From NCBI GenBank assembly GCA_041686115.1, contig JAWLEM010000002.1, forward strand, positions 1 through 46,074: 46,074 nt of DNA, written 5' to 3'. Position numbers and translations under genes: made by a program. Positions 3,224 to 46,074 of the stretch are shown piece by piece (positions within the stretch are counted from its first letter, which is position 1; every line of letters starts with the position of its first letter). The stretch is from Bacteroidales bacterium. Lineage in GTDB: Bacteria > Bacteroidota > Bacteroidia > Bacteroidales > UBA12077. The notes below the pieces were generated by a model, which was not told the origin of the DNA, did not search any database, and was given only the letters and a program-made list of their open reading frames with translations.

Positions 3224-3676
3224 TCAATCATAAGTTATTAATAGTTTATCTACTAATTCCACATACAATAAATAATCTAACCCGGCATAATTTCTTGCTG
3301 AGCTATACAAATAATCTTCTGGCTGTGCCACAAGCATTTCTTCTACCGGATTCATATGTATATAATTTACCTTTTCGTTTAAAAAACGATTTGTGAAAAT
3401 TTCTTTAGGATGATTTCCATCCTGCCAAAATTTGTAGTTTTTAATTCTCTTCAAATCTTTCCCTGCTTTTTCAAATTTTTTTAAAAGCCACTCTCTTCTA
3501 CTTTCAGGTTCTTCTTTAATTTGTTTAATAATTTGCTTTGCTGTATGCTTTTTAAAATCACGTAATATTTCAGATAGCGAATACTCACCATCGGCACGTA
3601 TAATCATATGCAGATGACTTGGCATCAACACCCATGCAAAAATTGTTAATCCTTTATATTGCTGACAGTATTTCAA
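3224..3676 (-). CDS. REP-associated tyrosine transposase (RAYT, IS200/IS605-like Y1 HUH enzyme), apparently N-terminally truncated
   Basis: It has the HUH motif (MPSHLHMII), EEPESRREW, KFWQDGNHP and the Tyr region YIHMNPV. The frame stays open upstream to 3727 (WIDIFTRRNHKEKIIESL...) and then hits a TAG exactly where GC-rich repeat sequence starts. The ~20-aa first beta-strand seen in full-length homologues is missing. Confidence 0.8.
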   Translation of the reverse strand: MKYCQQYKGLTIFAWVLMPSHLHMIIRADGEYSLSEILRDFKKHTAKQIIKQIKEEPESRREWLLKKFEKAGKDLKRIKNYKFWQDGNHPKEIFTNRFLNEKVNYIHMNPVEEMLVAQPEDYLYSSARNYAGLDYLLYVELVDKLLITYD

Positions 3677-3822: not shown

Positions 3823-4797
3823 TTACCAATTTAATAACCACGCAAAAATAAGCGGAGCCACAATGGTGGCATCAGATTCAACAATATATTTAGGGGTATC
3901 CACATCGAGTTTACCCCAGGTTATTTTTTCGTTAGGTACGGCGCCGGAGTATGAGCCGTAGCTGGTTGTAGAATCAGAAATCTGGCAAAAGTAACTCCAG
4001 AAAGGAATTTTTTCCATTTCTAAATCCTGGTAAAGCATGGGAACAACACAAATCGGAAAATCGCCGGCTATACCACCACCGATTTGAAAAAATCCTATTC
4101 CTTTTCCTTCTGAATTTCTAATATACCAGTCGGCAAGCCAGGCCATATACTCAATACCCGACTTTACTGTTGATGGTTTTAACTGCCCTTTAATACAGTA
4201 CGAAGCAAAAATATTGCCCATGGTGCTGTCTTCCCATCCGGGAACAACAATCGGAAGGTTTTTTTCAGCTGCAGCAATCATCCATGAGTTTTTAGGGTCA
4301 ATCTCATAATATTGCTCTAAAACTCCCGAAAGCAACATTTTGTACATGTATTCGTGTGGAAAATATCTTTCGCCCTTTTCTTCAGCATTTTTCCAGATTT
4401 CGTAAATATGTTTTTGTAAGCGCCTGAATGCTTCTTCTTCGGGAATACAAGTATCGGTAACCCGATTTAATCCCTTTTCGAGCAGCTCCCATTCCTGTTT
4501 GGGTGTCAGATCCCTGTAGTTTGGTACTCTTTTATAATGCGAATGGGCAACAAGATTCATTAAATCTTCTTCAAGGTTTGCCCCGGTACATGAAATGATA
4601 TGCACTTTATCCTGCCTGATCATTTCGGCAAGGCTTTTTCCCAGCTCCCCGGTACTCATTGCTCCGGCAAGGGTGATCATCATTTTACCGTTTTCGGCTA
4701 AATGTTTTTCGTATCCGATAGCTGCATCTTTTAAAGCAGCTGCATTAAAATGTAAAAAATGCTCATCGATAAATTTTGATATGGTATTTCTTTCCAT
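3823..4797 (-). CDS. Deoxyhypusine synthase-like protein (probable homospermidine synthase type)
   Basis: 324 aa. It has the DHS-fold motifs (GAMSTGELG, ISCTGANLEED, IGGGIAGDF) and a conserved catalytic-lysine context, TWGKL. It is the last gene of the polyamine operon. Confidence 0.85.
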   Translation of the reverse strand: MERNTISKFIDEHFLHFNAAALKDAAIGYEKHLAENGKMMITLAGAMSTGELGKSLAEMIRQDKVHIISCTGANLEEDLMNLVAHSHYKRVPNYRDLTPKQEWELLEKGLNRVTDTCIPEEEAFRRLQKHIYEIWKNAEEKGERYFPHEYMYKMLLSGVLEQYYEIDPKNSWMIAAAEKNLPIVVPGWEDSTMGNIFASYCIKGQLKPSTVKSGIEYMAWLADWYIRNSEGKGIGFFQIGGGIAGDFPICVVPMLYQDLEMEKIPFWSYFCQISDSTTSYGSYSGAVPNEKITWGKLDVDTPKYIVESDATIVAPLIFAWLLNW

Positions 4798-4820
4798 GAT
4801 ATATGTTTTATTTTTAATTT

Positions 4821-4847
4821 TTAACCACGAAGGAAATTTGTGGTTAA
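4821..4847. other. Intercistronic hairpin TTAACCAC-N11-GTGGTTAA
   Basis: Perfect 8-bp stem between the agmatinase stop and the DHS-like start. It contains the ACCACGAAGG motif, related to the ACACAGAG repeats at 28534-28575. Confidence 0.4.
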
Positions 4848-4856
4848 AAAATGTAA

Positions 4857-5702
4857 TTATTTATTAAAAACATAACTTAAAATCTTATAATAGAGTTTGG
4901 CAGCTAAAAAATCGGGTGCTTTATTATTTTGATCCGGACATAGCTCCATGATATCGAAACCGACAACATTTTTATTTTTGGCTACTAACTGAATAAAATC
5001 TGTTACCTGTTTCCAGCTTAATCCCCCTGGCTCGGGAGTTCCTGTCGATGGCATGATTGATGGGTCAAGCCCGTCGAGGTCGATGGTAATAAAAACATTT
5101 TCAGTTAATTTGCTCAGGGCTTTTTGCATCCATTTTGGATCTCTGTGTATATCATGTGCAAAAAAGCAGTTTTCTTGTTTCAGGTGTTTTTTCTCAGATA
5201 TATCCATACTTCTAATCCCAACCTGAACAAGATTTAATGTTTTTTGCGCTTCGTGAACTGCACAGGCATGATTACATGCTGAACCATCATAATCGGGGCG
5301 AAGATCAGCATGTGCATCTATTTGCAAAACCGAAAGATCACTAAAGTGTTCTTTAAATGCTCTAATAGATCCAATGCTAATGGAATGTTCTCCCCCGAAA
5401 AGGGTAACAAATTTATTCATTTTAAGGTACCTTAGGGCCACTTCATGAACCTTGCTAACCATTGCTTCGGGTGAGCTGTTTTCTGTTATCGGATCAGATA
5501 AAAATATACCCCGGGTATATACTTCAGAATCAGTTTCTATATCGTATAGTTCCATGTTTTCAGAAGCCTCTAGAAAAGCTTCCGGGCCTTTGTCCGATCC
5601 TTTGACCCAGGTACTGGTTCCATCGTAAGGAACAGGAATAAGCACAATTTTTGATGTTTCCAATTGAGCATATTCATCAGGTATACCAGCATAGTTTTTC
5701 AT
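4857..5702 (-). CDS. speB: Agmatinase (ureohydrolase family)
   Basis: Arginase-family Mn ligand motifs GGEHSIS, DAHADLR and TIDLDGLDP. It sits between the arginine decarboxylase and the DHS-like gene. Confidence 0.9.
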   Translation of the reverse strand: MKNYAGIPDEYAQLETSKIVLIPVPYDGTSTWVKGSDKGPEAFLEASENMELYDIETDSEVYTRGIFLSDPITENSSPEAMVSKVHEVALRYLKMNKFVTLFGGEHSISIGSIRAFKEHFSDLSVLQIDAHADLRPDYDGSACNHACAVHEAQKTLNLVQVGIRSMDISEKKHLKQENCFFAHDIHRDPKWMQKALSKLTENVFITIDLDGLDPSIMPSTGTPEPGGLSWKQVTDFIQLVAKNKNVVGFDIMELCPDQNNKAPDFLAAKLYYKILSYVFNK

Positions 5703-5711
5703 TGTACTTAG

Positions 5712-7112
5712 TTATTTATTGTTATAACCTAATATCTTGAGCATATCTTTCGGTTCCTGCTCTTTTGTAAATAACCGGGTTGTAAATCCTCCTTTTTTAT
5801 CTATATCAATAATGATATGTTTCGGGCCGGGAATTAAACAATGTTGCAAACCGCCGTATCCACCTAATGTGTCCTGGTATGCACCGGTATTAAAAAACCC
5901 AATGTATAAGGTTTCATTGGCTGTGATTTTTGGCAGGTATATGGCATTTGCATGTTGCTCTGAGTTATAATAATCGTCGCTATCGCAGGTTAATCCGCCA
6001 AGAAAAACCCTTTCGTATGTACTGTACCATTTGTTTATTGGCAACAAAATAAATCGTTTATTAATAGCCCAGCTATCGGGCAAAGTGGTCATAAACGAGC
6101 TATCAATCATATTCCATAACTCCCGGTCGTTTTGTTTTTTTTGTCCTAAAACGGAATAAATAATTCCGCTGCTTTCGCCTACGGTAAATGACCCAAATTC
6201 GGTAAAGATATTAGGTTCCTTTAAGTTATTGGCTTCGCAATATAATTTTATTTGCGATATGATTTCATCAATAATATATTCGTAGTCATAATCGAACGAA
6301 AGGGAGTTTTTTATGGGGAATCCTCCACCAATATTTAATGAGTCCAGTTCGGGACATACTTTCTTTAGCTCGCCGTAAACATTCAGGCATTTTACCAGTT
6401 CACTCCAATAATAAGCATTATCTTTTATTCCGGTATTAATAAAGAAATGCAGCATTTTGAGTTTGATGTTGGGATTCTCTTTTACCTGTTTTTTATAAAA
6501 GGGAACGATATCCTTGTAACCAATACCCAACCGCGAGGTATAAAACTCAAATTTTGGTTCTTCTTCAGAAGCAATTCGTATTCCAACCTGGAATGGAACA
6601 TCAATTAAATCTTCAAGTTGTTCCAGTTCTTTAAAATTATCCACAACGGGGATGGTATTTTTAAATCCGTTATTGATAATCCTGGAAATATTTTCAATAT
6701 AGGCTTCACGTTTAAAACCATTACAAATAATATAGGTTGATTTATCGATTTTTTTCTCTTCGTAAAGTTTTTCAACAATATTAATATCAAAAGCAGAAGA
6801 TGTTTCGATATGGATATCGTTTTTTAATGCTTCGTGCAAAATGTGTTTAAAGTGTGAGCTTTTTGTACAATAACAGTAGTAGTATTTACTTTTGTAGTTT
6901 ACCTTTTCCATGGCATTATAAAACCATTTCTTGGCTCTTTTTATCTGATTGGATACTTGTGGTAAGTAGGTAAATTTTAAAGGGGTTCCATACGCTTCAA
7001 TCATGTCCATCAAAGGAATTTTATGAAACAGTAAATTGTCATTGTCTAAACTAAATTCCTTTTGTGGGAAATCGAAGGTTTGCTCTATTAAATCTATATA
7101 TTTAATCTTCAC
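5712..7112 (-). CDS. Arginine decarboxylase (PLP-dependent, alanine-racemase-fold decarboxylase, short Bacteroidota type)
   Basis: 466 aa with a GTG start. It has group IV decarboxylase features (CTKS lysine region, NIGGGFP, GAYQD) and is operonic with the agmatinase. Confidence 0.75.
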   Translation of the reverse strand: MKIKYIDLIEQTFDFPQKEFSLDNDNLLFHKIPLMDMIEAYGTPLKFTYLPQVSNQIKRAKKWFYNAMEKVNYKSKYYYCYCTKSSHFKHILHEALKNDIHIETSSAFDINIVEKLYEEKKIDKSTYIICNGFKREAYIENISRIINNGFKNTIPVVDNFKELEQLEDLIDVPFQVGIRIASEEEPKFEFYTSRLGIGYKDIVPFYKKQVKENPNIKLKMLHFFINTGIKDNAYYWSELVKCLNVYGELKKVCPELDSLNIGGGFPIKNSLSFDYDYEYIIDEIISQIKLYCEANNLKEPNIFTEFGSFTVGESSGIIYSVLGQKKQNDRELWNMIDSSFMTTLPDSWAINKRFILLPINKWYSTYERVFLGGLTCDSDDYYNSEQHANAIYLPKITANETLYIGFFNTGAYQDTLGGYGGLQHCLIPGPKHIIIDIDKKGGFTTRLFTKEQEPKDMLKILGYNNK

Positions 7113-8541: not shown

Positions 8542-11500
8542 TTAATTTTTCGAAAAAGCCTTGTTAATTGCCGACAACAAATCTTCAATACTTATTGGTT
8601 TAGTAATATAGTTATCGCATCCGGCTTTTATGCATTTAAGTTTTTCATCATCGTGGGTAAATGCCGATTGTCCGATAATTTTCATGTCGTGCTTATGTTT
8701 CTTAATTTCTTTTGTTGCTTCGTATCCGTCCATATTGGGCATTTTAAGGTCCATAAGCACCAGGTCTATTTTATTTTTCAAACACATTTCAACGGCCTCT
8801 TTACCATCTTTGGCCCAAATAATTTTGGCATTTGTCGGACTAAGCACTTCTTCGAAGTAGGTGTAATTTACATCAATGTCTTCAACTATCAAGAAGACCT
8901 TGTCTTTCCAGTCGAAATTTTTTTCTTTACTGGGGAGTTTTTTGTTTTCTGTAATCGGTTTTTCTGATTCAATGGGTAGTGTAAAATATATATTTGTTCC
9001 CTGTTTTGGCGTAGACTGTGCCCAAATTTCCCCTCCCAAATGGTGTACAATTTTTTTGGCAATAGTTAATCCAAGCCCCGTTCCACCATACTCGCGTGTA
9101 AATGATTCGTCTATCTGCCGGAAAAGATCATAAATCATTTCAAATTTATTATTAGAAATTCCAATTCCGGTATCTATAACGTAAAACTGAATTTTATTTT
9201 CATTTTTTAAGATTGAGTAACCAAATTCAACAAATCCATTCTGAGTAAATTTCACTGCATTTTCGATCAGGTTAAATAGTACCTGCTTAATACGTATGGT
9301 ATCTGTAAAAATTGAAAAGTCGTTATTTTTTACTCCTTTATTTATCGATAATTGTATTTCCTTTTTAGGATCTTGTTCTATTTTAATACTAAAAGACACA
9401 TATAGGTCTAATAACAACTTATTTACATAGCAGTTGGTTTTATTAATTTCAAATTTTCCTGATTGAATTCGGGAGATATCGATCACATCATCTATAAGTT
9501 TTAGAAGGCTATGGCTGTTTTCGTTAATCAGGGTATTGAGTTTAATTTTTTCTTCATAAGGGAGTTCTTCGTCGAGCAGAAGGTTTGAAAAACCGATAAT
9601 AGCATTCATTGGGGTGCGTATTTCGTGAGAAAGGTTTGCCAAAAATGCTGTTTTTAATCGATTTGATTCTTCGGCCTGCTCTTTTGCCAGAATAAGCTCT
9701 TTTTCATTTTTTTTGCGATCTGAAATATCTTCTGCAATAATTACAAAATGAGTTATTTCATTCTTGTGATTCTTAACAGGTGATATGGATGCCAGTTCCC
9801 AGTATATTTCGCCGGTTTTTTTCCTGTTCTGAATTTCCCCCTGCCAGTCTTTTCCTTTTAAAACCGCATTCATAATATTTTTATAAATACTGGTTGGCGA
9901 AACAGAATCGTTTAATATTCCAACTTTTTTACCCAGGACTTCTTCGGGTGTATATCCGGTAAAGGCTGTAAAGCTTGGATTAACATATTCTATCTGCCCT
10001 TTTAGATTTGTAATAATAACACAAACGGGTGAGTGCTGAATAGCATTTGATAATTTTTTTAGCTCGTATTCGGTTTTTTTCTTTTGGGTAATATCCAGAG
10101 ATACCCCTCCGATTTTCCAAGTATTATCTATTCCTCTGAACCTGAACTTGTGTGTCTGATAAGTTCTTAATCTGCCCGAAATATCAGGTAGCTGGTCTTC
10201 AACAATCAAAACCTGTCCGTTTAGTACTTTTTGATCTTCACTAATAACCCTTTTGGCATATTCTTCCGGAAATATTTCCTGTGGTTTTTTTTGCTGACAA
10301 TTCTCGGCAGAAAAAACATGATTCATATATTTATTCAGATAAACCGATTTTAGGTTTTCATCTTTAATAAAAACACCCAGGGGCAGATTGTCCATGAATA
10401 TTGAGAATTGCTGTTCTGTTTTTTGTAATGCTTCCTCTATTTCAACCCGTTTGGTGATGTCTTTAAAATCTTCGATAATTCCTAAAATTTCACCGCTTTG
10501 TCCTTTAAAGGCAACCGATGTTAGAATACCAGGAATGATTTTTCCGGTTTTATTTCTTTTCTTAATATCCTGTTCAACGCGCTCTTCGCCGTTTTTTATA
10601 AGATTTAAAGGGCAATCTGCTGTATGGCAGTAAGGCCCGGGAAAAACATTGTAGCATTTTTTACCTTCGGCATCATCCTTGCTAATTCCAGACATCATTG
10701 TAAACGTTCTGTTAACACGCAGGATGTTAAAGTCTTTGTCAATTAATCGCATGCTGTTGCCGGTGGTGTTGAATATCTGGTTTAATTCTGCATTGGTTTC
10801 GATAATTTCTTTGGTTTTTTTGGCCAGTCGCTTGTCAATGCTGTCTTGCAAATTAAAAAACTTGTTTAAAAGCATGTTAAACGAAAAATGGAGAATTAAA
10901 TAGGTAATGGCCAGAATGCCAAAAATGATTAACAAAGACCGGTATATGGATGCAAGATAAGCATTTTGCAGCCTGGTAATATCTTTAAGATATAATATTC
11001 CGGTAAACCCTTCATAACGGAAACTGTTTTGTACATCAACAATATCGATATAATAATATTTATCGAGATATTCTATTCTATTTGCTTTAATGCTTTGATT
11101 ATTTTTTAAAACCGATGCAAAAAATTCTTTATTAAAAAGGGAGTGTATTATGATGTTTTCTTTCTTAGGGGACGAAGAAAAGGAATAGGCCAGATTTTCA
11201 GAAATTTTATTTGCATCGAATAAACTGGCTATTATTAAATCATGATTTTTGGATACATGCTCGATGATTTCATTTTCTCGAATACCAAATTCAATGCAAC
11301 CAATATATTCTCCGTTATATATTATGGGTTCAATAATTTTATAATACAATTGAGCATCGTCAAATTCAAAGGCTGTTTTTTTCTTTTGTTTCTGGTTTAC
11401 TTCTGAAACAAGTGTTTGTGGAGCAGCGGTACTTACATTTTCTGTTGGGCCCGATTCCATGTTTAATCCAAGTGTATTATCTTTATAATAAAAGTTTAGT

Positions 11501-11826
11501 ACAAAATGAAAAGGATCTTCGGTTTTTAATATGGAATAGAAAGGGAAAACTTTTTTGTATAAATCATCCGTTTTACGTAATTGGAAATCTTTTTTTATAG
11601 CCGGATTATTTACAAAATACTGAATTTTTTCGCGATAAATCCTGTTTGTAGTATAAAGCAGATTTTTAATTTCTATTCCGGCTATTTCACTGTCTTTTTG
11701 AATTTGCCAATCGAGGTATTGCTTATGGTTTTTTAGGCTGATATAAAAATAAAATGAGCATAAGATGAATAGCACAGAAATGACTGCTATTATAGTCCTG
11801 TTTTTTAACTTTTTTTCAAAATCCAT
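8542..11826 (-). CDS. Hybrid sensor histidine kinase/response regulator with extracytoplasmic sensor and multiple PAS domains
   Basis: Two TM helices bracket a ~270-aa sensor region, followed by three PAS-like modules. It has the H-box LSHEIRTPMN, the N/G boxes NAVKFT, DTGIGI and GTGLGL, and a C-terminal receiver (LVLMDLKMPNMDG ... TKP). Confidence 0.9.
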   Translation of the reverse strand: MDFEKKLKNRTIIAVISVLFILCSFYFYISLKNHKQYLDWQIQKDSEIAGIEIKNLLYTTNRIYREKIQYFVNNPAIKKDFQLRKTDDLYKKVFPFYSILKTEDPFHFVLNFYYKDNTLGLNMESGPTENVSTAAPQTLVSEVNQKQKKKTAFEFDDAQLYYKIIEPIIYNGEYIGCIEFGIRENEIIEHVSKNHDLIIASLFDANKISENLAYSFSSSPKKENIIIHSLFNKEFFASVLKNNQSIKANRIEYLDKYYYIDIVDVQNSFRYEGFTGILYLKDITRLQNAYLASIYRSLLIIFGILAITYLILHFSFNMLLNKFFNLQDSIDKRLAKKTKEIIETNAELNQIFNTTGNSMRLIDKDFNILRVNRTFTMMSGISKDDAEGKKCYNVFPGPYCHTADCPLNLIKNGEERVEQDIKKRNKTGKIIPGILTSVAFKGQSGEILGIIEDFKDITKRVEIEEALQKTEQQFSIFMDNLPLGVFIKDENLKSVYLNKYMNHVFSAENCQQKKPQEIFPEEYAKRVISEDQKVLNGQVLIVEDQLPDISGRLRTYQTHKFRFRGIDNTWKIGGVSLDITQKKKTEYELKKLSNAIQHSPVCVIITNLKGQIEYVNPSFTAFTGYTPEEVLGKKVGILNDSVSPTSIYKNIMNAVLKGKDWQGEIQNRKKTGEIYWELASISPVKNHKNEITHFVIIAEDISDRKKNEKELILAKEQAEESNRLKTAFLANLSHEIRTPMNAIIGFSNLLLDEELPYEEKIKLNTLINENSHSLLKLIDDVIDISRIQSGKFEINKTNCYVNKLLLDLYVSFSIKIEQDPKKEIQLSINKGVKNNDFSIFTDTIRIKQVLFNLIENAVKFTQNGFVEFGYSILKNENKIQFYVIDTGIGISNNKFEMIYDLFRQIDESFTREYGGTGLGLTIAKKIVHHLGGEIWAQSTPKQGTNIYFTLPIESEKPITENKKLPSKEKNFDWKDKVFLIVEDIDVNYTYFEEVLSPTNAKIIWAKDGKEAVEMCLKNKIDLVLMDLKMPNMDGYEATKEIKKHKHDMKIIGQSAFTHDDEKLKCIKAGCDNYITKPISIEDLLSAINKAFSKN

Positions 11827-19022: not shown

Positions 19023-19123
19023 TATTGATTTAATCCTACATACAATAATTATAAAACAATAGGAGTTTAGAACTAAATCTTCATATTTTTTAGAAAAAGC
19101 TGAAAACCTAAAATCACAACGAC

Positions 19124-19756
19124 ATGGATCAACTAAAAAAAATAAGTATTCAGCTTGAACATGCCTTGCTATCCCTCGACCAGGAAGCTGCTTTACATAT
19201 AATCAGAGAGGCCCAAGATGACAGTTCACCAGATAAAATTGCCGGTGATTTGATATCTACTACTTTAGTAAGAATAGGTAATTCATGGGAATCGGGAAAT
19301 CTTTCCTTATCGCAGGTTTATATGAGCGGCATCATTTGCGAAAAAGTAATTGATGAAATTTTACCACCACAAAGCCCAATCAGAAAAAGCCAACCTAAAA
19401 TGGCTATTGCTGTGCTTGAAGACTTTCATTTGTTAGGAAAAAGAATCATCTTTTCGACACTAAGGGCAAGCGGCTATGAACTCATTGATTTAGGTGGAGG
19501 TTTAAGCATTGAAAGCATTGTTAACATTGTAAAAACCGAAGAGATTAAAATTTTATTACTCTCCGTTTTAATGTTACCATCGGCACTCCGCGTTAAAGAG
19601 TTGAAAAAGCAACTAAAGGATTTTGGTGTAACCATTGTAGTGGGTGGAGCTCCATTCAGGTTTGATGAGCAATTATGGGAAGAAGTAGGAGCCGATTATT
19701 ACGGCAAAGATTCATCCGAAGCATTGAAAATTGTAAATAAAATTATGGAGGATTGA
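19124..19756 (+). CDS. Cobalamin (corrinoid)-binding protein, MtaC/MtbC-like (B12-binding_2 helical cap + Rossmann B12-binding domain)
   Basis: It has the canonical base-off/His-on signature: DxHxxG (EDFHLLG), SxL (LSVLM) and GG (VVGGAPF). An N-terminal helical bundle precedes it. Confidence 0.85.
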   Translation: MDQLKKISIQLEHALLSLDQEAALHIIREAQDDSSPDKIAGDLISTTLVRIGNSWESGNLSLSQVYMSGIICEKVIDEILPPQSPIRKSQPKMAIAVLEDFHLLGKRIIFSTLRASGYELIDLGGGLSIESIVNIVKTEEIKILLLSVLMLPSALRVKELKKQLKDFGVTIVVGGAPFRFDEQLWEEVGADYYGKDSSEALKIVNKIMED

Positions 19757-19757
19757 T

Positions 19758-20798
19758 ATGAAAAGAGTTGAAATGACCCCGATGGAACGTGTTTTAACCA
19801 CATTGTCTCATAATGAACCCGACCGTGTTCCTTTGTTTTTATTACTCACCATGCATGGTGCAAAAGAACTGGGATTAAGTATTAAGGATTATTTTTCAAA
19901 AGCCGAAAATGTAGCTGAGGGTCAGATAAGGCTACAAAAAAAATACACTACAGATTGTTTTTATCCTCTTTTCTATACTCCGATTGAAGTAGAAGCTTTT
20001 GGTGCGGAGGTAATTTACCGAGAAGATGGCCCTCCAAATTCAGGACTCCCCATCATTAAAGACTTAACCGACATTAAAAAGCTGGAAGCACCGCGGGTAA
20101 GCGACACTAAAGTCTTGCATAAAGTTTTGAAATCCATCGAGATTCTGAAAGATGAAAGCAAAGGGAGTATACCGATTATAGGTGTTGCTATGTCGCCTTT
20201 TTCATTGCCTGTTATGCAACTTGGATTTGAAAAATACCTGGAACTTATGCATTATCACGAAGATTTATTCAACCATTTAATGAAAATCAACGAAGCATTT
20301 TGTATAGATTGGTCGAATGCACAATTGGCTGCAGGGGCTACTGCCATTTGTTATTTCGACCCGGTATCTTCTCCTACCATCATCCCAAAAGGACTATATC
20401 GCAAAACGGGCTTTCAGGTAGCTAAACGAACCATCACAAAAATTAAAGGGTCAACAGCTACTCACTTTGCTTCCGGAAATTGTTTAAAACTGGCTGATTT
20501 ACTACCCGAAACAGGAACAGCGGTGGTAGGGGTTAGTACTCATGAAAGCATCAGCGAAATCAAGCAGGCATATAAAAACAAATTATCTGTTTTAGGAAAT
20601 TTAAATGGAATTGAAATGCGGCGTTGGACAAAAGAAGAAACTACAAATATTGTTAAGGAAGTGATAAAAAAAGCGGCCCCGGGAGGAGGATTTATCTTAT
20701 CTGATAATCATGGCGAAATACCATTTCAGGTAAAAGACGAAACCTTACTGGCAGTATCAGCCGCTGTAAAAGAATTCGGAACTTACCCAATTCAATAA
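19758..20798 (+). CDS. Uroporphyrinogen decarboxylase (URO-D) family protein, MtaA/CmuA-like corrinoid methyltransferase homologue
   Basis: It starts 1 nt after the corrinoid protein stop. N-terminal MTPMERVLTTLSHNEPDRVPLF and the overall length match the MtaA/URO-D family. The expected HxC...C zinc ligands read THFASGNC and SDNHGE. Confidence 0.75.
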   Translation: MKRVEMTPMERVLTTLSHNEPDRVPLFLLLTMHGAKELGLSIKDYFSKAENVAEGQIRLQKKYTTDCFYPLFYTPIEVEAFGAEVIYREDGPPNSGLPIIKDLTDIKKLEAPRVSDTKVLHKVLKSIEILKDESKGSIPIIGVAMSPFSLPVMQLGFEKYLELMHYHEDLFNHLMKINEAFCIDWSNAQLAAGATAICYFDPVSSPTIIPKGLYRKTGFQVAKRTITKIKGSTATHFASGNCLKLADLLPETGTAVVGVSTHESISEIKQAYKNKLSVLGNLNGIEMRRWTKEETTNIVKEVIKKAAPGGGFILSDNHGEIPFQVKDETLLAVSAAVKEFGTYPIQ

Positions 20799-20809
20799 AC
20801 AATGGTTTG

Positions 20810-22543
20810 ATGGAAAAAAAACTGACACTATCAGCTTGTAATTTTTTAATACCCGAAATAGCACAAGTCTTTAAAAATGGGTATTACCCGGAAGTGCAAT
20901 TAATCTCCTACCCGGTTAATTGCTCTTCGAACGCACTAAATTCCAATGTGGTTTCTGAAGTCGCATCAAAATCGGTTTCAGATTCCGACATTATTGTTAT
21001 TGGGAGTTTTTGTCATTCACCGCAAAATTCAGAAATCAAAGGCAACAAAAACGTTCAGGTTATTCAATTGGAACAATGTTTTGAACTTGTGTTAAACCCC
21101 GAAACCATTTATCATTTTGTAAAACAGGGTTATTATATTGTAACCAATGGTTGGTTAAGGAGCTACGAGCGCAATATTCAGGATTGGGGATTTGATAAAC
21201 CATCAGCCAGGTCGTTTTTTCAGGAATCGATGAAATCGATCCTTCTGCTCGACACAAAAATCCCGGGTGATTATATGCCTAACCTTTTGGCCCTTTCCGA
21301 CTATATGGGATTGCCCTACGAGATTATCCCGATTGGATTATCTCATTGCAAAAAATATATTGATACAATAGTACTAAACTGGCGAAACGAGAACGAACAA
21401 AAAAAATTAACCGATAAGCTCTCAACAATTTCCAAACAAAGTGCGGACCATAAACTTATTTTTAATCAACTGGAGACACTTGTTCGACTAACAAATGAAA
21501 AAGAAATTACTCAAATAGGTGTCGAATTGATAAATATTTTATTCGCACCTTCTAAGATTGTTTACAAATTTGTGAACAATGATCAAGAAAAATCATTCGA
21601 TTTTAAGGGTTTTTTCAATGCTGACAATTTTAATGCTGAGAACTCCTTTGAAATTGAAATTAAATATGCGGATGAATTATTGGGCATCGCTGAAGTAAAA
21701 GGTCTTCAATTTCCGCAATTTAAAAAGAAGTATGAGGAGATGGGGGTTGTTATCAGTCAGATATTTGGAATGGCAATTGCAAATGCACGTAAATACTCTG
21801 AACTCGAAGATGCCAATCTGGCTCTAAAAGTTAGTGAAGCTGAGTTGAGCGAATTAAACGCCACTAAAGACAAATTCTTTTCAATCATTGCCCACGATTT
21901 GAAAGGGCCATTTAGTACAATTGTTGGATTAAGTGAAATGCTTGTTAAAAAAATCAAGGAAAAGGACTATGATAAGATAGAGAAATATGCCGGGTTTATC
22001 TTTCATTCATCCAAACGAGCAATGGATTTACTTATGAACCTCATGGAATGGTCGCAATCCCAAACCGGCAGGATGGAATTTAATCCTGAACGATTCGATT
22101 TAACTGTATACATTAATGATATCACACTGCTGTTCGATGACATTGCAAGGCAAAAGGGAATAGTAATCAAAAAAGAATTACCTGACAATACTCTAGTATT
22201 TGCAGATCAAGCTATGATAAGCACAGTGCTGCGAAACCTGATTTCGAATGCTATTAAATTTACCAAGCCGGGTGGTGAGATTACAATTTTAGTGAGGGCA
22301 GAAAAAAAAGAATGCATTGTATCAGTAAAAGATAACGGAATCGGAATACCAAAAGACAGTGTTGGCAAACTATTCCGTATTGATGAAAATTACTCTACAC
22401 AAGGAACTGCCAACGAAGAAGGCACCGGACTGGGATTAATATTGTGTAAAGAGTTCGTTGAAAAGCATGATCAAGAGATTTGGATTGAAAGCGAAGAGGG
22501 TAAAGGCTCAACATTTTATTTTACCTTGCCTTTAATTAAATAA
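20810..22543 (+). CDS. Sensor histidine kinase with N-terminal DUF1638-like domain
   Basis: The N-terminal ~190 aa (SACNFLIPEI...IIVIGSFC...QCFELVL...YYIVTNGWL) resembles DUF1638. A coiled-coil/GAF-like segment follows. It then has the H-box FSIIAHDLKGP, the N-box LISNAIKFT, G1 DNGIGI and G2 GTGLGL. No TM helix and no receiver domain. Confidence 0.75.
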   Translation: MEKKLTLSACNFLIPEIAQVFKNGYYPEVQLISYPVNCSSNALNSNVVSEVASKSVSDSDIIVIGSFCHSPQNSEIKGNKNVQVIQLEQCFELVLNPETIYHFVKQGYYIVTNGWLRSYERNIQDWGFDKPSARSFFQESMKSILLLDTKIPGDYMPNLLALSDYMGLPYEIIPIGLSHCKKYIDTIVLNWRNENEQKKLTDKLSTISKQSADHKLIFNQLETLVRLTNEKEITQIGVELINILFAPSKIVYKFVNNDQEKSFDFKGFFNADNFNAENSFEIEIKYADELLGIAEVKGLQFPQFKKKYEEMGVVISQIFGMAIANARKYSELEDANLALKVSEAELSELNATKDKFFSIIAHDLKGPFSTIVGLSEMLVKKIKEKDYDKIEKYAGFIFHSSKRAMDLLMNLMEWSQSQTGRMEFNPERFDLTVYINDITLLFDDIARQKGIVIKKELPDNTLVFADQAMISTVLRNLISNAIKFTKPGGEITILVRAEKKECIVSVKDNGIGIPKDSVGKLFRIDENYSTQGTANEEGTGLGLILCKEFVEKHDQEIWIESEEGKGSTFYFTLPLIK

Positions 22544-31939: not shown

Positions 31940-33355
31940 TTATAATGGCTTTTGAAAAGTCAAACAATATTGATGGAATGTATTACTCACAAAGGTATTT
32001 CCATAACCATAGGGTGCAATTGAGATATCATCCTGCAACCAAAAGGTTTCTGGAAGTAAAATCATCTTTTCCTGTAGTTTCAGGGATAAATCCCATGCAA
32101 ATGGGTAGTTGCTTCCTTTTTTCTTGATGTTTTTTACCACAATAGTCATGTAACCACCCGGTTTCAGTAAATTGATCAAATTATAATAGATTTTGGTTAA
32201 ATCATTAAGAAAATCATGGTAATCGCTCATATTTCCGAGATCTTCTTTATTATCAGAATAGTTGACCTGCAACCCTTTTTTTATTCTTTTTGCCTGGTTT
32301 TCGGCGCCTTTCATGTTTAACATATCCCAATACGGAGGAGATGTAATGATATAATCAATCGACGGAAAATCTTTGGGTTTAATTTTTCGGGCATCTTTAC
32401 ACAGGATTTTGTATTCAGCAGTATTTGCATTTTCGGTTTTAAAGTGCTTACACCGCTCGTTGGCAATATCACAAAAGAAATCGCTTAATTCGGTGCCGTA
32501 ACCATTTCGGTTTAGCATCATGGCTGCAAGTTGTGTTGTTCCGGTGCCACTCATAGGATCGAAAACATTTTCGTCACCCTTTGTAAATGCTTTAATATGC
32601 ATTTCTGCCAAATCTTCGGGATATTTAGCAGGATGCAATATTTCATTCTTTTTACGTGGCTTGGGCTTTAAAATATACCACGATGGGAAAATATTAAATT
32701 CTTTTTTGTTGTTGATTTGTGTATTATGCTCGAAAAAAGGGAAAGTGTGATTGCTTATTTGATACTGGCTTTTTTCATCATTTCTGAAATACAGACTGTA
32801 AAAATGATTTTCTGATGTTTTAAAAAAGTCAATCCTTTCGTTTTTGTTTTCCTGTTCAAAACAACCAATTTTTTCATCTTTCAGACTGTAAAATGAGCTG
32901 ATTGTTTTGGCCAAATCCCAGGCTACCGGATAAAATTTATTGTTGTGATAAAGATTTGGAGTGTGGATGGATATAAATTTCCGGTGTGCAAGATTATTTT
33001 TTAAAGTAAAAATGAAATCCAAAACCTGCTTTTTGAGCTTTAAATAGTTATTGAAAGATGAATCTTCATGCAAAAAGTCTCTAAAATCGATTAAAACAAA
33101 TTGCAATACATCTTTTTTTGAAACCGTATCAGGAGTAAACAGGTTAAAGCTTAATTCCTTCTCAAGTTTTTGGATGGTTTTTAGTTTTTTGGCAGAGCCC
33201 CAAAATAAAAGATTGGGTTCTTTTTCTGCGTCATCGAATTTAATGAAAAACCGGATATTTTGTTTGTATAACGTTTCATCATCGGTGTATTTAAACCATG
33301 ATTTCTGGAAAGGCAGCCACTCTTTAGATGTAAGGTTGTTAAATCGGTTTTTCAT
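31940..33355 (-). CDS. DNA methyltransferase (N6-adenine or N4-cytosine, SPPY type) with large N-terminal extra domain
   Basis: HPAKYPEDLAEMHIKAFTKGDENVFDPMSGTGTT (motifs X and I, aa 241-274) precedes ITSPPYWDM (motif IV, aa 338-345) and LLKPGGYM. Confidence 0.85.
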   Translation of the reverse strand: MKNRFNNLTSKEWLPFQKSWFKYTDDETLYKQNIRFFIKFDDAEKEPNLLFWGSAKKLKTIQKLEKELSFNLFTPDTVSKKDVLQFVLIDFRDFLHEDSSFNNYLKLKKQVLDFIFTLKNNLAHRKFISIHTPNLYHNNKFYPVAWDLAKTISSFYSLKDEKIGCFEQENKNERIDFFKTSENHFYSLYFRNDEKSQYQISNHTFPFFEHNTQINNKKEFNIFPSWYILKPKPRKKNEILHPAKYPEDLAEMHIKAFTKGDENVFDPMSGTGTTQLAAMMLNRNGYGTELSDFFCDIANERCKHFKTENANTAEYKILCKDARKIKPKDFPSIDYIITSPPYWDMLNMKGAENQAKRIKKGLQVNYSDNKEDLGNMSDYHDFLNDLTKIYYNLINLLKPGGYMTIVVKNIKKKGSNYPFAWDLSLKLQEKMILLPETFWLQDDISIAPYGYGNTFVSNTFHQYCLTFQKPL

Positions 33356-33411
33356 TTTTTGTTGTTTGGATGGCTAAAATAATAAAAAATTAAGATTCCG
33401 GATCATTTAAA

Positions 33412-34512
33412 TCAATCAAAAGTCAGATGCTTGTAGCTGGATAAATCCAATGCTTTTTTACGATAATCCGACGATTTATCTGGGTCTTTATTCTTCCAGA
33501 TTCTCGATAATCCAAAGTACGCATACGAAATTCGTCCGTTGGCAAAAGGCAGGTATTTTTCCGACAGCCGAATGGCCGATAAATAATGTTGTTCTGCCTT
33601 GCTGTAATTTTTATGTTTTTTTTCTTCGAGTATTCCTTTGTAAATATTGGCCATCATCCTGAAAAAATCATTATAAAATTGATTCTTTTCCAGTTTTTCA
33701 ACTAGCTGTTCCGCCCTGTTATATCTTTCCAGCAAAAGCAATGTTCTTATTCTGTATGAAAGATATAGCGGGTTGTCGGGGTATTCATGGTGTAACTCGC
33801 GGGTATACCGGGCGCTTTTATGGTAGTTGCCTTCGAAATTAAGGCTGATAAAAACCAGGAATGATAATGACTCGGCATCTAAAAATATGCCATGTTTCCA
33901 TGTATATTCGAGTTGCTTAAATCCAAGCTCCCTGTCGCCTGAAGGAAAAAAAAATGCGATGGGTTTATAAGCAGGATGTTTTTCGGGATAAGCTTCGCGA
34001 TAATAGTTGTATAAACCGGTAGAGAAATTGAAATCTGTAAACTCGTCAGTTAAATCAAAGCCCTTTTTTGTTAGTTGGTAGGCTTTGCGAACATAAGGTC
34101 TAACTTCCGATGATTGATGATTGTCGGCATAGTATTGCATCAGCAATAATCTTGACATCAGGCTTATAAAACTGGCTTCGATATTGTTTTTGTCTTTTTC
34201 CAGCAAGGCATCTGCTTTATTTATGGCTTGACTTATCAAATCAACATACATTTGGTGGTAATCGCTTTGCGTGGTTACCGGAAAATGCTGCCAATAAATT
34301 TTTATGGAGTAAAATAGATCAGGAAGCGGATGTTCAGGATATTTTAATGATATTTCTTGGTAATACGAATCAAATTGATCAAACTGAAAATTATAAATCA
34401 TGTTCAATTGCTGCTCAATTTCACCAACAGCTTTTTGATCCGACAAAATATAGGGTTGGGAATATACATGGAGAGAAATAATGGCCAATAATGTAGCAAA
34501 AAATAATTTCAT
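33412..34512 (-). CDS. Secreted helical-repeat (TPR-like) protein of unknown function
   Basis: It has a signal peptide (LLAIISLHVYSQ) and an all-helical repeat-like sequence rich in Y/L/E. No specific family recognised. Confidence 0.5.
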   Translation of the reverse strand: MKLFFATLLAIISLHVYSQPYILSDQKAVGEIEQQLNMIYNFQFDQFDSYYQEISLKYPEHPLPDLFYSIKIYWQHFPVTTQSDYHQMYVDLISQAINKADALLEKDKNNIEASFISLMSRLLLMQYYADNHQSSEVRPYVRKAYQLTKKGFDLTDEFTDFNFSTGLYNYYREAYPEKHPAYKPIAFFFPSGDRELGFKQLEYTWKHGIFLDAESLSFLVFISLNFEGNYHKSARYTRELHHEYPDNPLYLSYRIRTLLLLERYNRAEQLVEKLEKNQFYNDFFRMMANIYKGILEEKKHKNYSKAEQHYLSAIRLSEKYLPFANGRISYAYFGLSRIWKNKDPDKSSDYRKKALDLSSYKHLTFD

Positions 34513-44549: not shown

Positions 44550-44780
44550 AGTGTAAGGTTTAATTTGAAATAGGGTTTAATAAATTATTAGATCATTTTT
44601 TTAATCAGAAGTTTAAAGATAGAATAAATATTTTAAATCAGAATTGTTTTTGGATAAGATATTTAACGTTTGGTGGGGCAAGGTAGGGTATAACAACAGA
44701 ATAACGTAATTTAAGCTTTATTTTAAACATTTGTATCTGATCTTTGGTTTTATATTAATAAATTGCGTGATTATACGATT

Positions 44781-45206
44781 ATGAAAGATTTAATGCATAT
44801 TGTTTATGTAAGTTTTTCTGATAAAGTTTTATCAGAAAAAGGCCTTGATGAATTATTGGTTGATATTCGGAAAAGAAATAAACTTCAGAAAGTTACAGGC
44901 TTACTTCTATATAATGATGGGACATTTATTCAGCTTATAGAAGGAAAGACGAATATTATTCAAAACTTATTTGAAAAAATAAAGAATGACAAACGGCATT
45001 CCAATGTAGTATTATTATTAGAAGAATCAATAAAAAAGCGTGCATTCCCTGATTGGACCATGGGATACTATAAGCTAAGTAAAGAACAATCCGGAAAAAT
45101 CCCCGGATATTCAGATTTTATGCATTCAAAGGATTCCAGAAAGATTATTGAGTCTACATCGGATGAGGCAATGAAGTTGTTGAATAGTTTCAAAACATAT
45201 ATTTGA
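44781..45206 (+). CDS. Short BLUF-domain blue-light FAD photoreceptor
   Basis: IVYVS (photoactive Tyr), VTGLLLYNDGTFIQLIEG (Gln), DKRHSNV and FPDWTMGY (Trp/Met) match the BLUF consensus. A C-terminal ~50-aa helical tail follows. Confidence 0.85.
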   Translation: MKDLMHIVYVSFSDKVLSEKGLDELLVDIRKRNKLQKVTGLLLYNDGTFIQLIEGKTNIIQNLFEKIKNDKRHSNVVLLLEESIKKRAFPDWTMGYYKLSKEQSGKIPGYSDFMHSKDSRKIIESTSDEAMKLLNSFKTYI

Positions 45207-45572: not shown

Positions 45573-46074
45573 TTAGTTGTTCAGCCATTTTTTAAAATTA
45601 GAAGCTCTTTCTATGCTTACAATGGTTTCCATTTCGTCATCTGCCGGCGGATTAAGCTTTAGTTTTACCCTGCCACGCGAAAAGGCTGTCATACTTTGTA
45701 TAGCATCCATATGAACAATATATTTTCTGTTGATTCTGAAAAATAGTTCCGGGTCTAGAACAGCTTCTAATGCATCCAGGGTGTAATCTACAGCCTTGGA
45801 ACCACCCTGGAATGTTTTTAAAAAAACATTTTTCTCGAGTGCATAAAACCACGCTATTTCGCTGGCTTCAATTTTTTTAATTTTATCACCAATTTGTATC
45901 AAAAAACGCTTTTTATAGTCTGGTTTTTTGTCTTGTATACCTGCCAGCAAACTTTCAAAATCAATAGAAAAGGCTGATTTTAATTTTTTATATTTCTGCA
46001 AACTGTCTTCCAGCTCACTTTTCCTTATAGGCTTTAAAAGGTAAGCAATGCTGTTTAGCTGAAAAGCTTTTATG
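45573..46074 (-). CDS. LytR/AlgR-type response regulator (LytTR DNA-binding domain; receiver domain runs off the window)
   Basis: The C-terminal region is LytTR-like (IEASEIAWFYALEKNVFLKT...FFRINRKYIVHMDAI). The frame stays open upstream to the window edge, reading AFQLNSIAYLLKPIRKSELEDSL, the typical end of a receiver domain. Confidence 0.8.
   Translation of the reverse strand, partial: IKAFQLNSIAYLLKPIRKSELEDSLQKYKKLKSAFSIDFESLLAGIQDKKPDYKKRFLIQIGDKIKKIEASEIAWFYALEKNVFLKTFQGGSKAVDYTLDALEAVLDPELFFRINRKYIVHMDAIQSMTAFSRGRVKLKLNPPADDEMETIVSIERASNFKKWLNN

Follow-up and report, generated by a model that had tools for sequence, protein, structure and literature searches.

A conserved corrinoid carrier, UroD-superfamily protein and DUF1638 histidine kinase: a candidate cassette for sensing the state of a protein-bound cobamide

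Why should a soluble histidine kinase be encoded directly behind a corrinoid carrier and a homolog of corrinoid-dependent methyltransferases? We sought to answer this question for a three-gene locus in a 46,074-nt stretch of DNA from a Bacteroidales bacterium (GenBank assembly GCA_041686115.1, contig JAWLEM010000002.1, positions 1-46,074 of the forward strand), hereafter called the window, which is a segment of Bacteroidota chromosome with a GC content of about 35%, genes for proteins with type 9 secretion system (T9SS) sorting domains, and nearest relatives in Draconibacterium and other Bacteroidales. We propose that the trio constitutes a sensory cassette whose signal is the state of a protein-bound cobamide, set by the methyltransferase homolog and read by the kinase, and we give this reading a probability of about 0.55; that the three genes form a dedicated signalling unit of any kind appears quite probable. 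The features of the locus are as follows.

19023-19123, + strand: 5′ intergenic region of 101 nt, presumed promoter and leader, after an open reading frame (ORF) for a small membrane protein
19124-19756, + strand: corrinoid (cobamide) carrier, 210 amino acids (aa), helical cap and Rossmann-type B12-binding domain (Pfam)
19758-20798, + strand: MtaA/CmuA-like methyltransferase homolog of the UroD superfamily, 346 aa, without the Cys2 zinc ligands (Pfam)
20807-22543, + strand: soluble histidine kinase with an N-terminal sensor; 578 aa if translated from TTG 20807, 577 aa if from ATG 20810 (Pfam)
20807-21391, + strand: first part of the kinase sensor, DUF1638, aa 1-195, two-lobed alpha/beta (PF07796, AlphaFold2 model)
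21404-21826, + strand: second part of the kinase sensor, long helices and GAF-like domain, aa ~200-340 (AlphaFold2 model, Foldseek)
21866-22534, + strand: kinase transmitter, HisKA aa 354-421 (H363) and HATPase_c aa 467-576 (Pfam)

The stop codon of the carrier gene (19756) is separated by a single nucleotide from the ATG of the UroD gene (19758), the stop codon of which (20798) lies 8 nt ahead of TTG 20807 and 11 nt ahead of ATG 20810; the 577-aa copy in the databases begins at the ATG. An earlier reading of this locus (the original prediction) had described three packed genes on one strand, and its coordinates, the common strand (here the plus strand) and its gaps of 1 and about 11 nt (counted to the ATG) were borne out. 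No cobalamin riboswitch or any other Rfam family scored above its gathering threshold in the entire window, and a scan for sigma-70 promoters and terminators yielded no sites above the level of shuffled sequence, the sigma-70 model being uninformative for Bacteroidota.

Conservation of the trio and exchange of its output

Genomic contexts were taken from loci in an assembly collection, 39 loci from named genomes and one plasmid locus, and were scanned with local hidden Markov models (HMMs) of the three proteins. When loci that contain the DUF1638 N-terminus of the sensor together with 1.7 kb or more of upstream sequence were considered, the order corrinoid protein, UroD protein, sensor was found on one strand, in adjacent or overlapping genes, at about 37 of about 37 non-redundant loci, and the corrinoid/UroD pair was missing only where the contig ends (L027, L038 and L044). 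The hosts include Bacteroidales (Prolixibacteraceae, Mariniphaga and the Marinilabiliaceae isolate ANBcel2), Ignavibacteria, Victivallaceae, Chloroflexota/Anaerolineales, Clostridia and the betaproteobacterium Azoarcus sp. KH32C, so that the trio spans at least six phyla. Because the flanks are otherwise unrelated across these hosts, the three genes can be regarded as a conserved unit, and the concern that the kinase fusion might be an accident of one lineage is contradicted by this distribution.

With the sensor region as query, 51 clusters at 90% identity were recovered. Almost all represent DUF1638-HisKA-HATPase proteins of 572-595 aa; among the others are one DUF1638-GGDEF protein and one DUF1638-HisKA_2 kinase. 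Across phyla, identity to the window copies is 52-85% for the UroD protein, 41-81% for the corrinoid protein and 23-80% for the sensor; judged from these values, the enzyme-carrier pair is apparently far more tightly constrained than the sensor, which points to conserved chemistry.

The genes immediately flanking the related trios are rich in signalling functions: among 64 such genes, HATPase_c (histidine kinases) was found in 24, PAS together with HisKA in about 20 and a receiver domain in 15, the receiver domains at many of these loci belonging to hybrid kinases that neighbour the trio. The Pfam-annotated flanks of related loci contain no RamA/DUF4445, no MtaB/MttB-type and no pterin-binding methyltransferase, and no MT1-type (substrate-specific) methyltransferase, RamA or stand-alone response regulator was found near the locus in the window, in agreement with the original prediction that the locus has neither a RamA activase nor a response regulator. 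In two of the 64 immediate neighbours we also observed the PocR sensory domain, which is shared by the MecA kinase and the PocR regulator.

To estimate the extent of the family, 1.84 billion representative sequences were covered in a full HMMER search. The combined DUF1638 and GAF-like sensor module is present in 1,778 clusters at 50% identity (E<=1e-3), 886 of which have E<=1e-30, and in the best 150 matches the whole 341-position profile lies at the N-terminus of proteins that range in length from 213 to 1,415 aa. Among 62 representatives of non-standard length, DUF1638 was detected in all 62, HATPase_c in 48, HisKA in 41, PAS in about 24, Response_reg in 17, GGDEF in eight, HD-GYP and HisKA_2 in two each, and STAS in one. 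The trio is retained when the output is exchanged, as with HisKA_2 at locus L008 and GGDEF at L007, where the C-terminus of the UroD protein lies directly upstream, and some loci encode larger DUF1638-GAF-PAS-histidine kinase sensors of up to about 1,150 aa. Such promiscuous joining to different signalling outputs is characteristic of a module for sensory input. Taken together, the conservation of the trio, the swapping of outputs and the signalling-rich flanks support the idea of a cobamide-coupled signalling cassette with which the original prediction had begun.

The pair can also occur with a different partner. At three Desulfobacteraceae loci the corrinoid and UroD genes are followed by a protein of 243-259 aa whose similarity to the sensor is confined to the GAF-like half, DUF1638 being absent (L046 9875-10654; L048 9968-10678; L050 6913-7644 and 11261-12322). 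These loci, such as L050, lie near PAS hybrid kinases, a PAS-HK-REC-REC-Hpt relay protein (HK, histidine kinase; REC, receiver), a protein joining the GAF-like half to GGDEF, and CheW. The GAF-like domain may therefore be part of the interface with the pair.

In the cultured Azoarcus sp. KH32C, the trio is carried by the megaplasmid pAZKH (NC_020548.1; L051 271288-276437; WP_015451904/05/06), with an HD-GYP gene before it and a hybrid kinase gene after it, and sits between genes for tetrahydromethanopterin-linked one-carbon (C1) oxidation (fwd/fhcD) and a pyrroloquinoline quinone (PQQ)-dependent methanol/ethanol dehydrogenase cluster. Such surroundings are a hint, though no proof, that the signal is a C1 compound or a methyl donor.

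A few loci depart from the standard arrangement in other ways. The corrinoid gene is split into separate cap and Rossmann ORFs at L006 (8300-8955), L039 (548-1204) and L040 (8310-8968), which may reflect a frameshift, a sequencing error or a truly split gene. Some loci encode a second, divergent B12-binding protein, scoring 40-50 bits against the profile of the trio corrinoid protein, a few genes downstream of the sensor (L010 16754-17041; L018 17706-18362; L020 11703-12368); L010 and L018 are one Bacteroidota locus fetched twice, and there the protein sits in a run of PAS kinases. A single UroD-sensor ORF of 1,016 aa (L023, 1797-4844) was considered as a "Rosetta stone" fusion and rejected as evidence: it is on a 4.8-kb contig of a metagenome-assembled genome, the UroD part has lost its last ~90 aa (HMM positions 1-255 are kept) and the sensor its first ~10 aa (it starts at position 11), so that the ORF has the appearance of an in-frame deletion or of faulty assembly, although it may also be a natural fusion. 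Searches of plasmids for a stand-alone DUF1638 protein turned up only the Azoarcus trio and unrelated B12-binding proteins of ~350 aa beside kinases. The ~350-aa "cobalamin-dependent proteins" encoded beside kinases or response regulators on Skermanella and Azospirillum plasmids (L052 and L053), with neither UroD nor DUF1638, probably represent a different arrangement of the AerR/PpaA or photocobilin type.

The carrier, the UroD protein and the sensor kinase

The carrier matches Pfam over both of its parts above the respective cut-offs, B12-binding_2 at aa 10-78 (E 7e-9) and B12-binding at aa 95-201 (E 2e-16), and its DxHxxG/SxL/GG signature is intact. Its best NCBIfam model is TIGR02370, "methyltransferase cognate corrinoid protein", with 80.6 bits, below the cut-off of 215.3, and the scores also remain below the equivalog cut-offs for MtbC (66.6 versus 350) and MtaC (50.6 versus 420); by these scores the methyltransferase cognate corrinoid class is the best match, yet the protein seems to represent a distinct branch of it. 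The CarH model NF052513 scored 43.1 bits against a cut-off of 400, and there is no helix-turn-helix (HTH) domain. When a profile of the carrier and its orthologs was compared with the PDB, the best relatives were MttC (7xcn), MtmC (3ezx), 4jgi, 1y80, MetH (1bmt) and MtaC (2i2x); photocobilins were weaker matches, and no CarH structure was among the matches at E<=1e-3. In 37 orthologs no exchange occurs at D100xH102xxG105, S147xL149 or G174G175, nor at W55, L62 and Y66 of the cap; these three cap residues align with F708, L715 and V719 of MetH, residues that we take to be those of the cap lying over the methyl ligand in the MetH structure. In view of these relatives, the invariant B12 motifs and the aligned cap residues, the protein looks like a corrinoid protein of the methyl-carrier type and not a CarH-type photoreceptor.

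The second protein matches the Pfam URO-D family across its full length (188 bits). Its nearest NCBIfam models are those of MtaA/CmuA, both below cut-off (TIGR01463, 111.2 versus 235.4 bits; PRK06252, 119.4 versus 244), while the HemE model TIGR01464 gives only 60.8 bits against 302.95; in the PDB, MtaA (4ay7, 51 bits) is followed closely by HemE entries (45 bits), so that the two are about equally distant. In the HMMER alignment with 4ay7, "LHIC-GN" of MtaA stands opposite "THFASGN" and "APGCGI" opposite "SDNHGE", and the His-Cys-Cys ligands of MtaA are thereby replaced by His236, Ala238 and His318, which does not correspond to an S-methyltransferase site. H236, A238, E263 and H318 are invariant in 40 orthologs that are 52-85% identical to the window copy. 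The remodelling of the thiol-activating site, which the original prediction had recognised in a member of the URO-D/MtaA family, thus extends to all 40 orthologs.

In the UroD superfamily, S-methyltransferases have a His-Cys-Cys zinc sphere, whereas in O-methyltransferases carboxylates or non-coordinating residues replace one or both cysteines (Kountz & Balskus 2023, PMC10418091). By this published rule, the ligand pattern is compatible with an MT1 of the O-demethylase type (OdmB/VdmB-like). Since the superfamily includes O-, S- and halide-demethylases, and the cysteine-free sphere follows the O-methyltransferase pattern, the UroD protein may itself be a substrate-specific, non-thiol methyltransferase, i.e., an MT1. 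The earlier statement that the locus lacks a substrate-specific MT1 is accordingly correct with regard to a separate gene near the locus, but its reasoning is weak, as the UroD protein could fill this role.

The third protein meets the definition of a class I histidine kinase, with HisKA at 31.9 bits and HATPase_c at 101.4 bits, and H363, N481, D509xGxG513 and G541 of the H, N, G1 and G2 boxes are invariant or nearly so in the family alignment, as would be expected of the soluble kinase with intact boxes that had been predicted. DUF1638 (PF07796) was matched at aa 42-183 with 41.7 bits, where the gathering cut-off is 27. The domain assignments of the original prediction therefore hold for all three proteins, the trio is conserved in Bacteroidota and beyond, and neither of the findings that would have spoken against it was obtained: DUF1638 is matched here and in all 62 relatives, and the homologous loci do not carry a full set of MT1 and activase. 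The extent of the sensor does require revision, as the predicted DUF1638-like region of ~190 aa is only its first part: the conserved sensor comprises ~340 aa, with DUF1638 at ~aa 1-195 and a GAF-like domain at ~aa 200-340.

AlphaFold2 models of aa 1-340 (mean predicted local distance difference test, pLDDT, 80.8) and aa 1-196 (pLDDT 87, predicted template-modelling score, pTM, 0.83) display a DUF1638 domain made up of two alpha/beta lobes, from which long helices lead to a domain built of beta-sheet. The latter resembles GAF domains (5w10, 3p01, PDE5A, DosP) with a Foldseek probability of 1.0 and a target-normalised TM score of ~0.5, while Pfam GAF gave no match on the window kinase. This second part of the sensor ends in a conserved "IANARKY" signalling helix in which N326, A327 and R328 are invariant. 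For the DUF1638 model, Foldseek found only weak neighbours, namely the PrpR N-domain (TM ~0.45), LacI-like and periplasmic binding protein-like folds, and aspartate transcarbamoylase (ATCase), and comparison of the sensor and DUF1638 profiles with PDB sequences gave only noise (GAF, E 0.96; saposin, E 0.03). As DUF1638 has no close structural relative, no function can be transferred to it from the fold search. Four of its cysteines, C11, C39, C69 and C91, are placed by the model just after beta-strands 1-4, at their C-terminal ends, and are conserved at >=90% in 62 diverse representatives and 37 loci.

DUF1638 is not devoid of functional context. In Phaeobacter inhibens, methionine synthesis requires a DUF1638 protein encoded by a stand-alone gene; this gene adjoins that for the B12-binding part of the split methionine synthase, and it co-occurs phylogenetically with a RamA-like protein, no mechanism being offered (Price et al. 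2018, PMC5764234), and in a 2025 paper a Ruegeria homolog is "predicted to enable reductive recharging of cobalamin". The original prediction had supposed that DUF1638 lacked any functional handle, which is contradicted by this genetic link to corrinoid reactivation. Its view of the system as undescribed agrees with our literature search for DUF1638/PF07796, for DUF1638-kinase fusions and for the corrinoid/UroD/kinase cassette, which found no published description of such fusions or of the cassette.

What the kinase may read

We infer that what the kinase reads is the corrinoid protein in its different states, and the cassette might operate as follows. The carrier, a small His-on corrinoid protein of the MttC/MtmC/MetH-cap type, would bear the signalling cobamide. 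The UroD protein, in a role like that of an MT1 and unlike that of MtaA, would exchange a methyl group between a small non-thiol molecule, such as a donor of the O-methyl or halomethane type, and the Co(I) of the carrier; we infer a non-thiol substrate because the putative metal site consists of His236/Ala238/Glu263/His318 and not of His-Cys-Cys. The DUF1638 and GAF-like module would then dock on the carrier, or on the carrier:enzyme complex, and distinguish its state, most likely methyl-Co(III) from Co(I)/Co(II), so that methyl-donor availability would set the rate of kinase autophosphorylation. The phosphoryl group would be handed on to a receiver domain whose gene lies elsewhere; an adjacent PAS hybrid kinase or REC protein is a plausible recipient in many genomes. 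That methylation specifically is the state being read is a tentative suggestion.

Several points weigh against this proposal. A canonical two-component system would include a response regulator, and neither the cassette nor its flanks in the window contain a stand-alone one; the cognate regulator of the kinase was not found in the window. A complete corrinoid pathway consists of MT1, carrier, MT2 and activase, of which the cluster has only the carrier and one UroD protein, and, although a system with a single methyltransferase needs Co(I), there is no reductive activase nearby, which applies to the window as well as to the annotated flanks of related loci. The substrate class of the UroD protein is deduced from its ligand substitutions alone. 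DUF1638 is apparently not indispensable to the corrinoid/UroD pair, since in Desulfobacteraceae the pair occurs with the GAF-like half by itself, and its role as the reading head is accordingly unproven. Finally, the modelled fold of DUF1638 resembles two-lobed small-molecule binders (PrpR N-domain, LacI-like), and the domain could bind a ligand directly.

This last point leads to an ordinary pairing of regulator and metabolic enzyme, in which DUF1638 or the GAF-like domain would bind a small molecule directly, the kinase would control expression of the corrinoid methyltransferase genes co-transcribed with it or of other genes, the carrier and the UroD protein would be metabolic, and their missing partners would be encoded elsewhere. 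The weak structural neighbours of the two-lobed model are ligand-binding sensor and repressor domains (PrpR N-domain, LacI/CcpA), GAF domains often bind small ligands, and corrinoid clusters without a tetrahydrofolate (H4folate) methyltransferase do exist, e.g., type 1 mlp. Such an arrangement is nonetheless difficult to reconcile with a cassette that has no response regulator or DNA-binding output and is kept with GGDEF, HD-GYP and STAS outputs, which do not provide simple transcriptional control of a neighbouring operon; moreover, an activase or second methyltransferase is encoded in no annotated flank, the neighbours are signalling and not catabolic genes, and stand-alone DUF1638 is tied to corrinoid proteins and not to small-molecule catabolism, all of which makes this explanation improbable in our view. 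The four cysteines invite another one, in which DUF1638 would recognise the oxidised, inactive Co(II) carrier formed from Co(I), as it may also do in aiding RamA-type reactivation, and switch the kinase, making it a sensor of redox state or oxidants, with the cysteines perhaps binding a metal or an Fe-S cluster. Their position at the ends of strands 1-4 and their >=90% conservation would fit, as would the mostly anoxic habitats of the hosts, the requirement for DUF1638, along with the phylogenetically co-occurring RamA-like protein, in the split corrinoid methionine synthase, and the "reductive recharging" predicted in 2025. We consider it unlikely, as it leaves unexplained the constant and highly conserved methyltransferase (52-85% identity), the metal or Fe-S role of the cysteines is conjecture, and the Desulfobacteraceae variants manage without DUF1638.

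Light is a poorer candidate for the signal. It would cleave the Co-C bond of methyl- or adenosyl-cobamide on the carrier, the sensor would read the photoproduct, and the UroD protein would re-methylate the cobamide to reset the system. B12-binding domains are established photoreceptor modules with diverse outputs, the photocobilins found among the PDB relatives of the carrier include a GGDEF protein (8j2y), the set of histidine kinase, GGDEF, HD-GYP and STAS outputs is reminiscent of photoreceptor families, and the window encodes a BLUF blue-light sensor, indicating that the organism meets light. The carrier, however, is nearest to the methyl carriers MttC, MtmC and MetH, with 43 bits against the 400 required for CarH and no CarH structure at E<=1e-3; many hosts come from dark, anoxic sediments, groundwater and digesters; and no known B12 photoreceptor requires a methyltransferase. 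It is also conceivable, if highly improbable, that the kinase merely tells apo- from holo-carrier and reports the supply of B12, which would agree with a small, highly conserved carrier co-translated with the sensor and with the lack of a cobalamin riboswitch at the locus, but would leave the strictly conserved methyltransferase without an explanation, and B12 transport or salvage genes were seen in no neighbourhood surveyed.

If a protein-bound cobamide state, set enzymatically, is indeed what the kinase reads, it would represent a new class of sensory input, unlike the light-driven B12 sensors, and DUF1638 would acquire a concrete and testable role as a reader or handler of the corrinoid-protein state. 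A more far-reaching version, which for now is speculative, holds that a sensing principle new to biology operates in at least six phyla, whereby the methyltransferase writes the presence of a methyl donor (methoxylated aromatics, methanol or halomethanes, for example) onto the cobamide, and DUF1638-GAF reads it out to kinase, cyclic di-GMP or partner-switching outputs; were it true, recognition of the corrinoid-protein state would become the general role of DUF1638. In either case, a large family has gone unannotated, its members being labelled at present "ATP-binding protein", "HAMP domain-containing histidine kinase", "uroporphyrinogen decarboxylase family protein" or "cobalamin-dependent protein", and the cultured host Azoarcus sp. 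KH32C makes experiments feasible.

Window surroundings and known systems

Elsewhere in the window, two more signalling genes encode a SpoIIE/PP2C-type phosphatase (1248-2486, + strand) and a 1,094-aa dCache/PAS hybrid histidine kinase with a receiver (8542-11826, - strand). The latter, 7 kb from the trio, was examined as a possible ortholog of the PAS hybrid kinases that flank other trios and rejected, as its ~30% identity is that of kinases in general; no partner for the DUF1638 kinase can be deduced from it. The BLUF protein (147 aa, FAD-binding, Pfam E 9e-29) is encoded at 44763-45206 (+ strand), where its gene adjoins a YunG-family gene and is close to that of a stand-alone LytTR DNA-binding protein (45573-46001, - strand). 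A polyamine cluster (3823-7112, - strand) comprises genes for a deoxyhypusine-synthase-like protein, an arginase/agmatinase-family protein and a pyridoxal phosphate-dependent ornithine/arginine decarboxylase, and adjoins a fragment of an IS200-like Y1 transposase gene (3224-3676). At 31940-34512 (- strand), an N6/N4 DNA methylase (470 aa) is encoded beside a 366-aa protein without a Pfam match, and the two may form a restriction-modification or other defence pair.

Comparison of the cassette with known systems shows that it shares with the methylotrophic ones (MtaABC, MtbA/MtbC, MttBC, MtsA; Odm/Vdm) a small, capped, His-on corrinoid carrier with DxHxxG/SxL/GG motifs and a UroD-superfamily methyltransferase gene beside it. 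It differs from them in having one methyltransferase, without a second one or a RamA/RACE activase nearby, and a sensor kinase in place of an enzyme as the third gene product; its UroD protein lacks the His-Cys-Cys zinc site of MtaA, and carrier and UroD protein alike fall far below the NCBIfam cut-offs of the named families. The type 1 mlp clusters (PMC10418091) are similar in being widespread "orphan" clusters that combine MtaA-like UroD proteins with a corrinoid protein in the absence of an H4folate methyltransferase. We rejected an assignment of the cassette to this type, since in mlp clusters the Mlps number two or three and have His-Cys-Cys sites, a Ram/RACE activase and genes of sulfur/selenium metabolism are found alongside, and there is no kinase, as opposed to the single cysteine-free UroD protein and the fused sensor seen here. 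A histidine kinase within a corrinoid methyltransferase cluster does have a precedent in MecA of the anaerobic dichloromethane mec cassette; the trio is not a mec cassette, however, because MecA has a PocR sensor domain and a partner regulator (MecD), and its cassette encodes an entire catabolic pathway, several methyltransferases and an activase included.

The split methionine synthase of Phaeobacter resembles the cassette in that a DUF1638 gene lies directly beside, and is functionally tied to, a gene for a B12-cap/B12-binding protein, but its DUF1638 is a stand-alone protein of ~200 aa accompanied by RamA, whereas in the cassette DUF1638 is the N-terminus of a signalling protein, joined to a GAF-like domain, with no RamA nearby. 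CarH/LitR, AerR/PpaA and the photocobilins (8j2w-8j2y) likewise use a cobalamin domain as the input for transcription factors, kinases or GGDEF proteins; in these photoreceptors the B12 domain is fused to, or directly partnered with, the output, the signal is light, and neither a methyltransferase nor DUF1638 is involved, while the carrier described here is nearer to the methyl carriers. In its logic the cassette can be compared with LuxP-LuxQ and TorT-TorS, in which what the kinase senses is not the ligand as such but the state of a second protein that carries it. Their partners are periplasmic binding proteins, whereas the partner proposed here would be a cytoplasmic cofactor protein, the state of which is set enzymatically. 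The cassette is thus akin both to sensor kinases that depend on an accessory protein and to B12-based sensing, and there is a realistic chance that it embodies a categorically new input mechanism.

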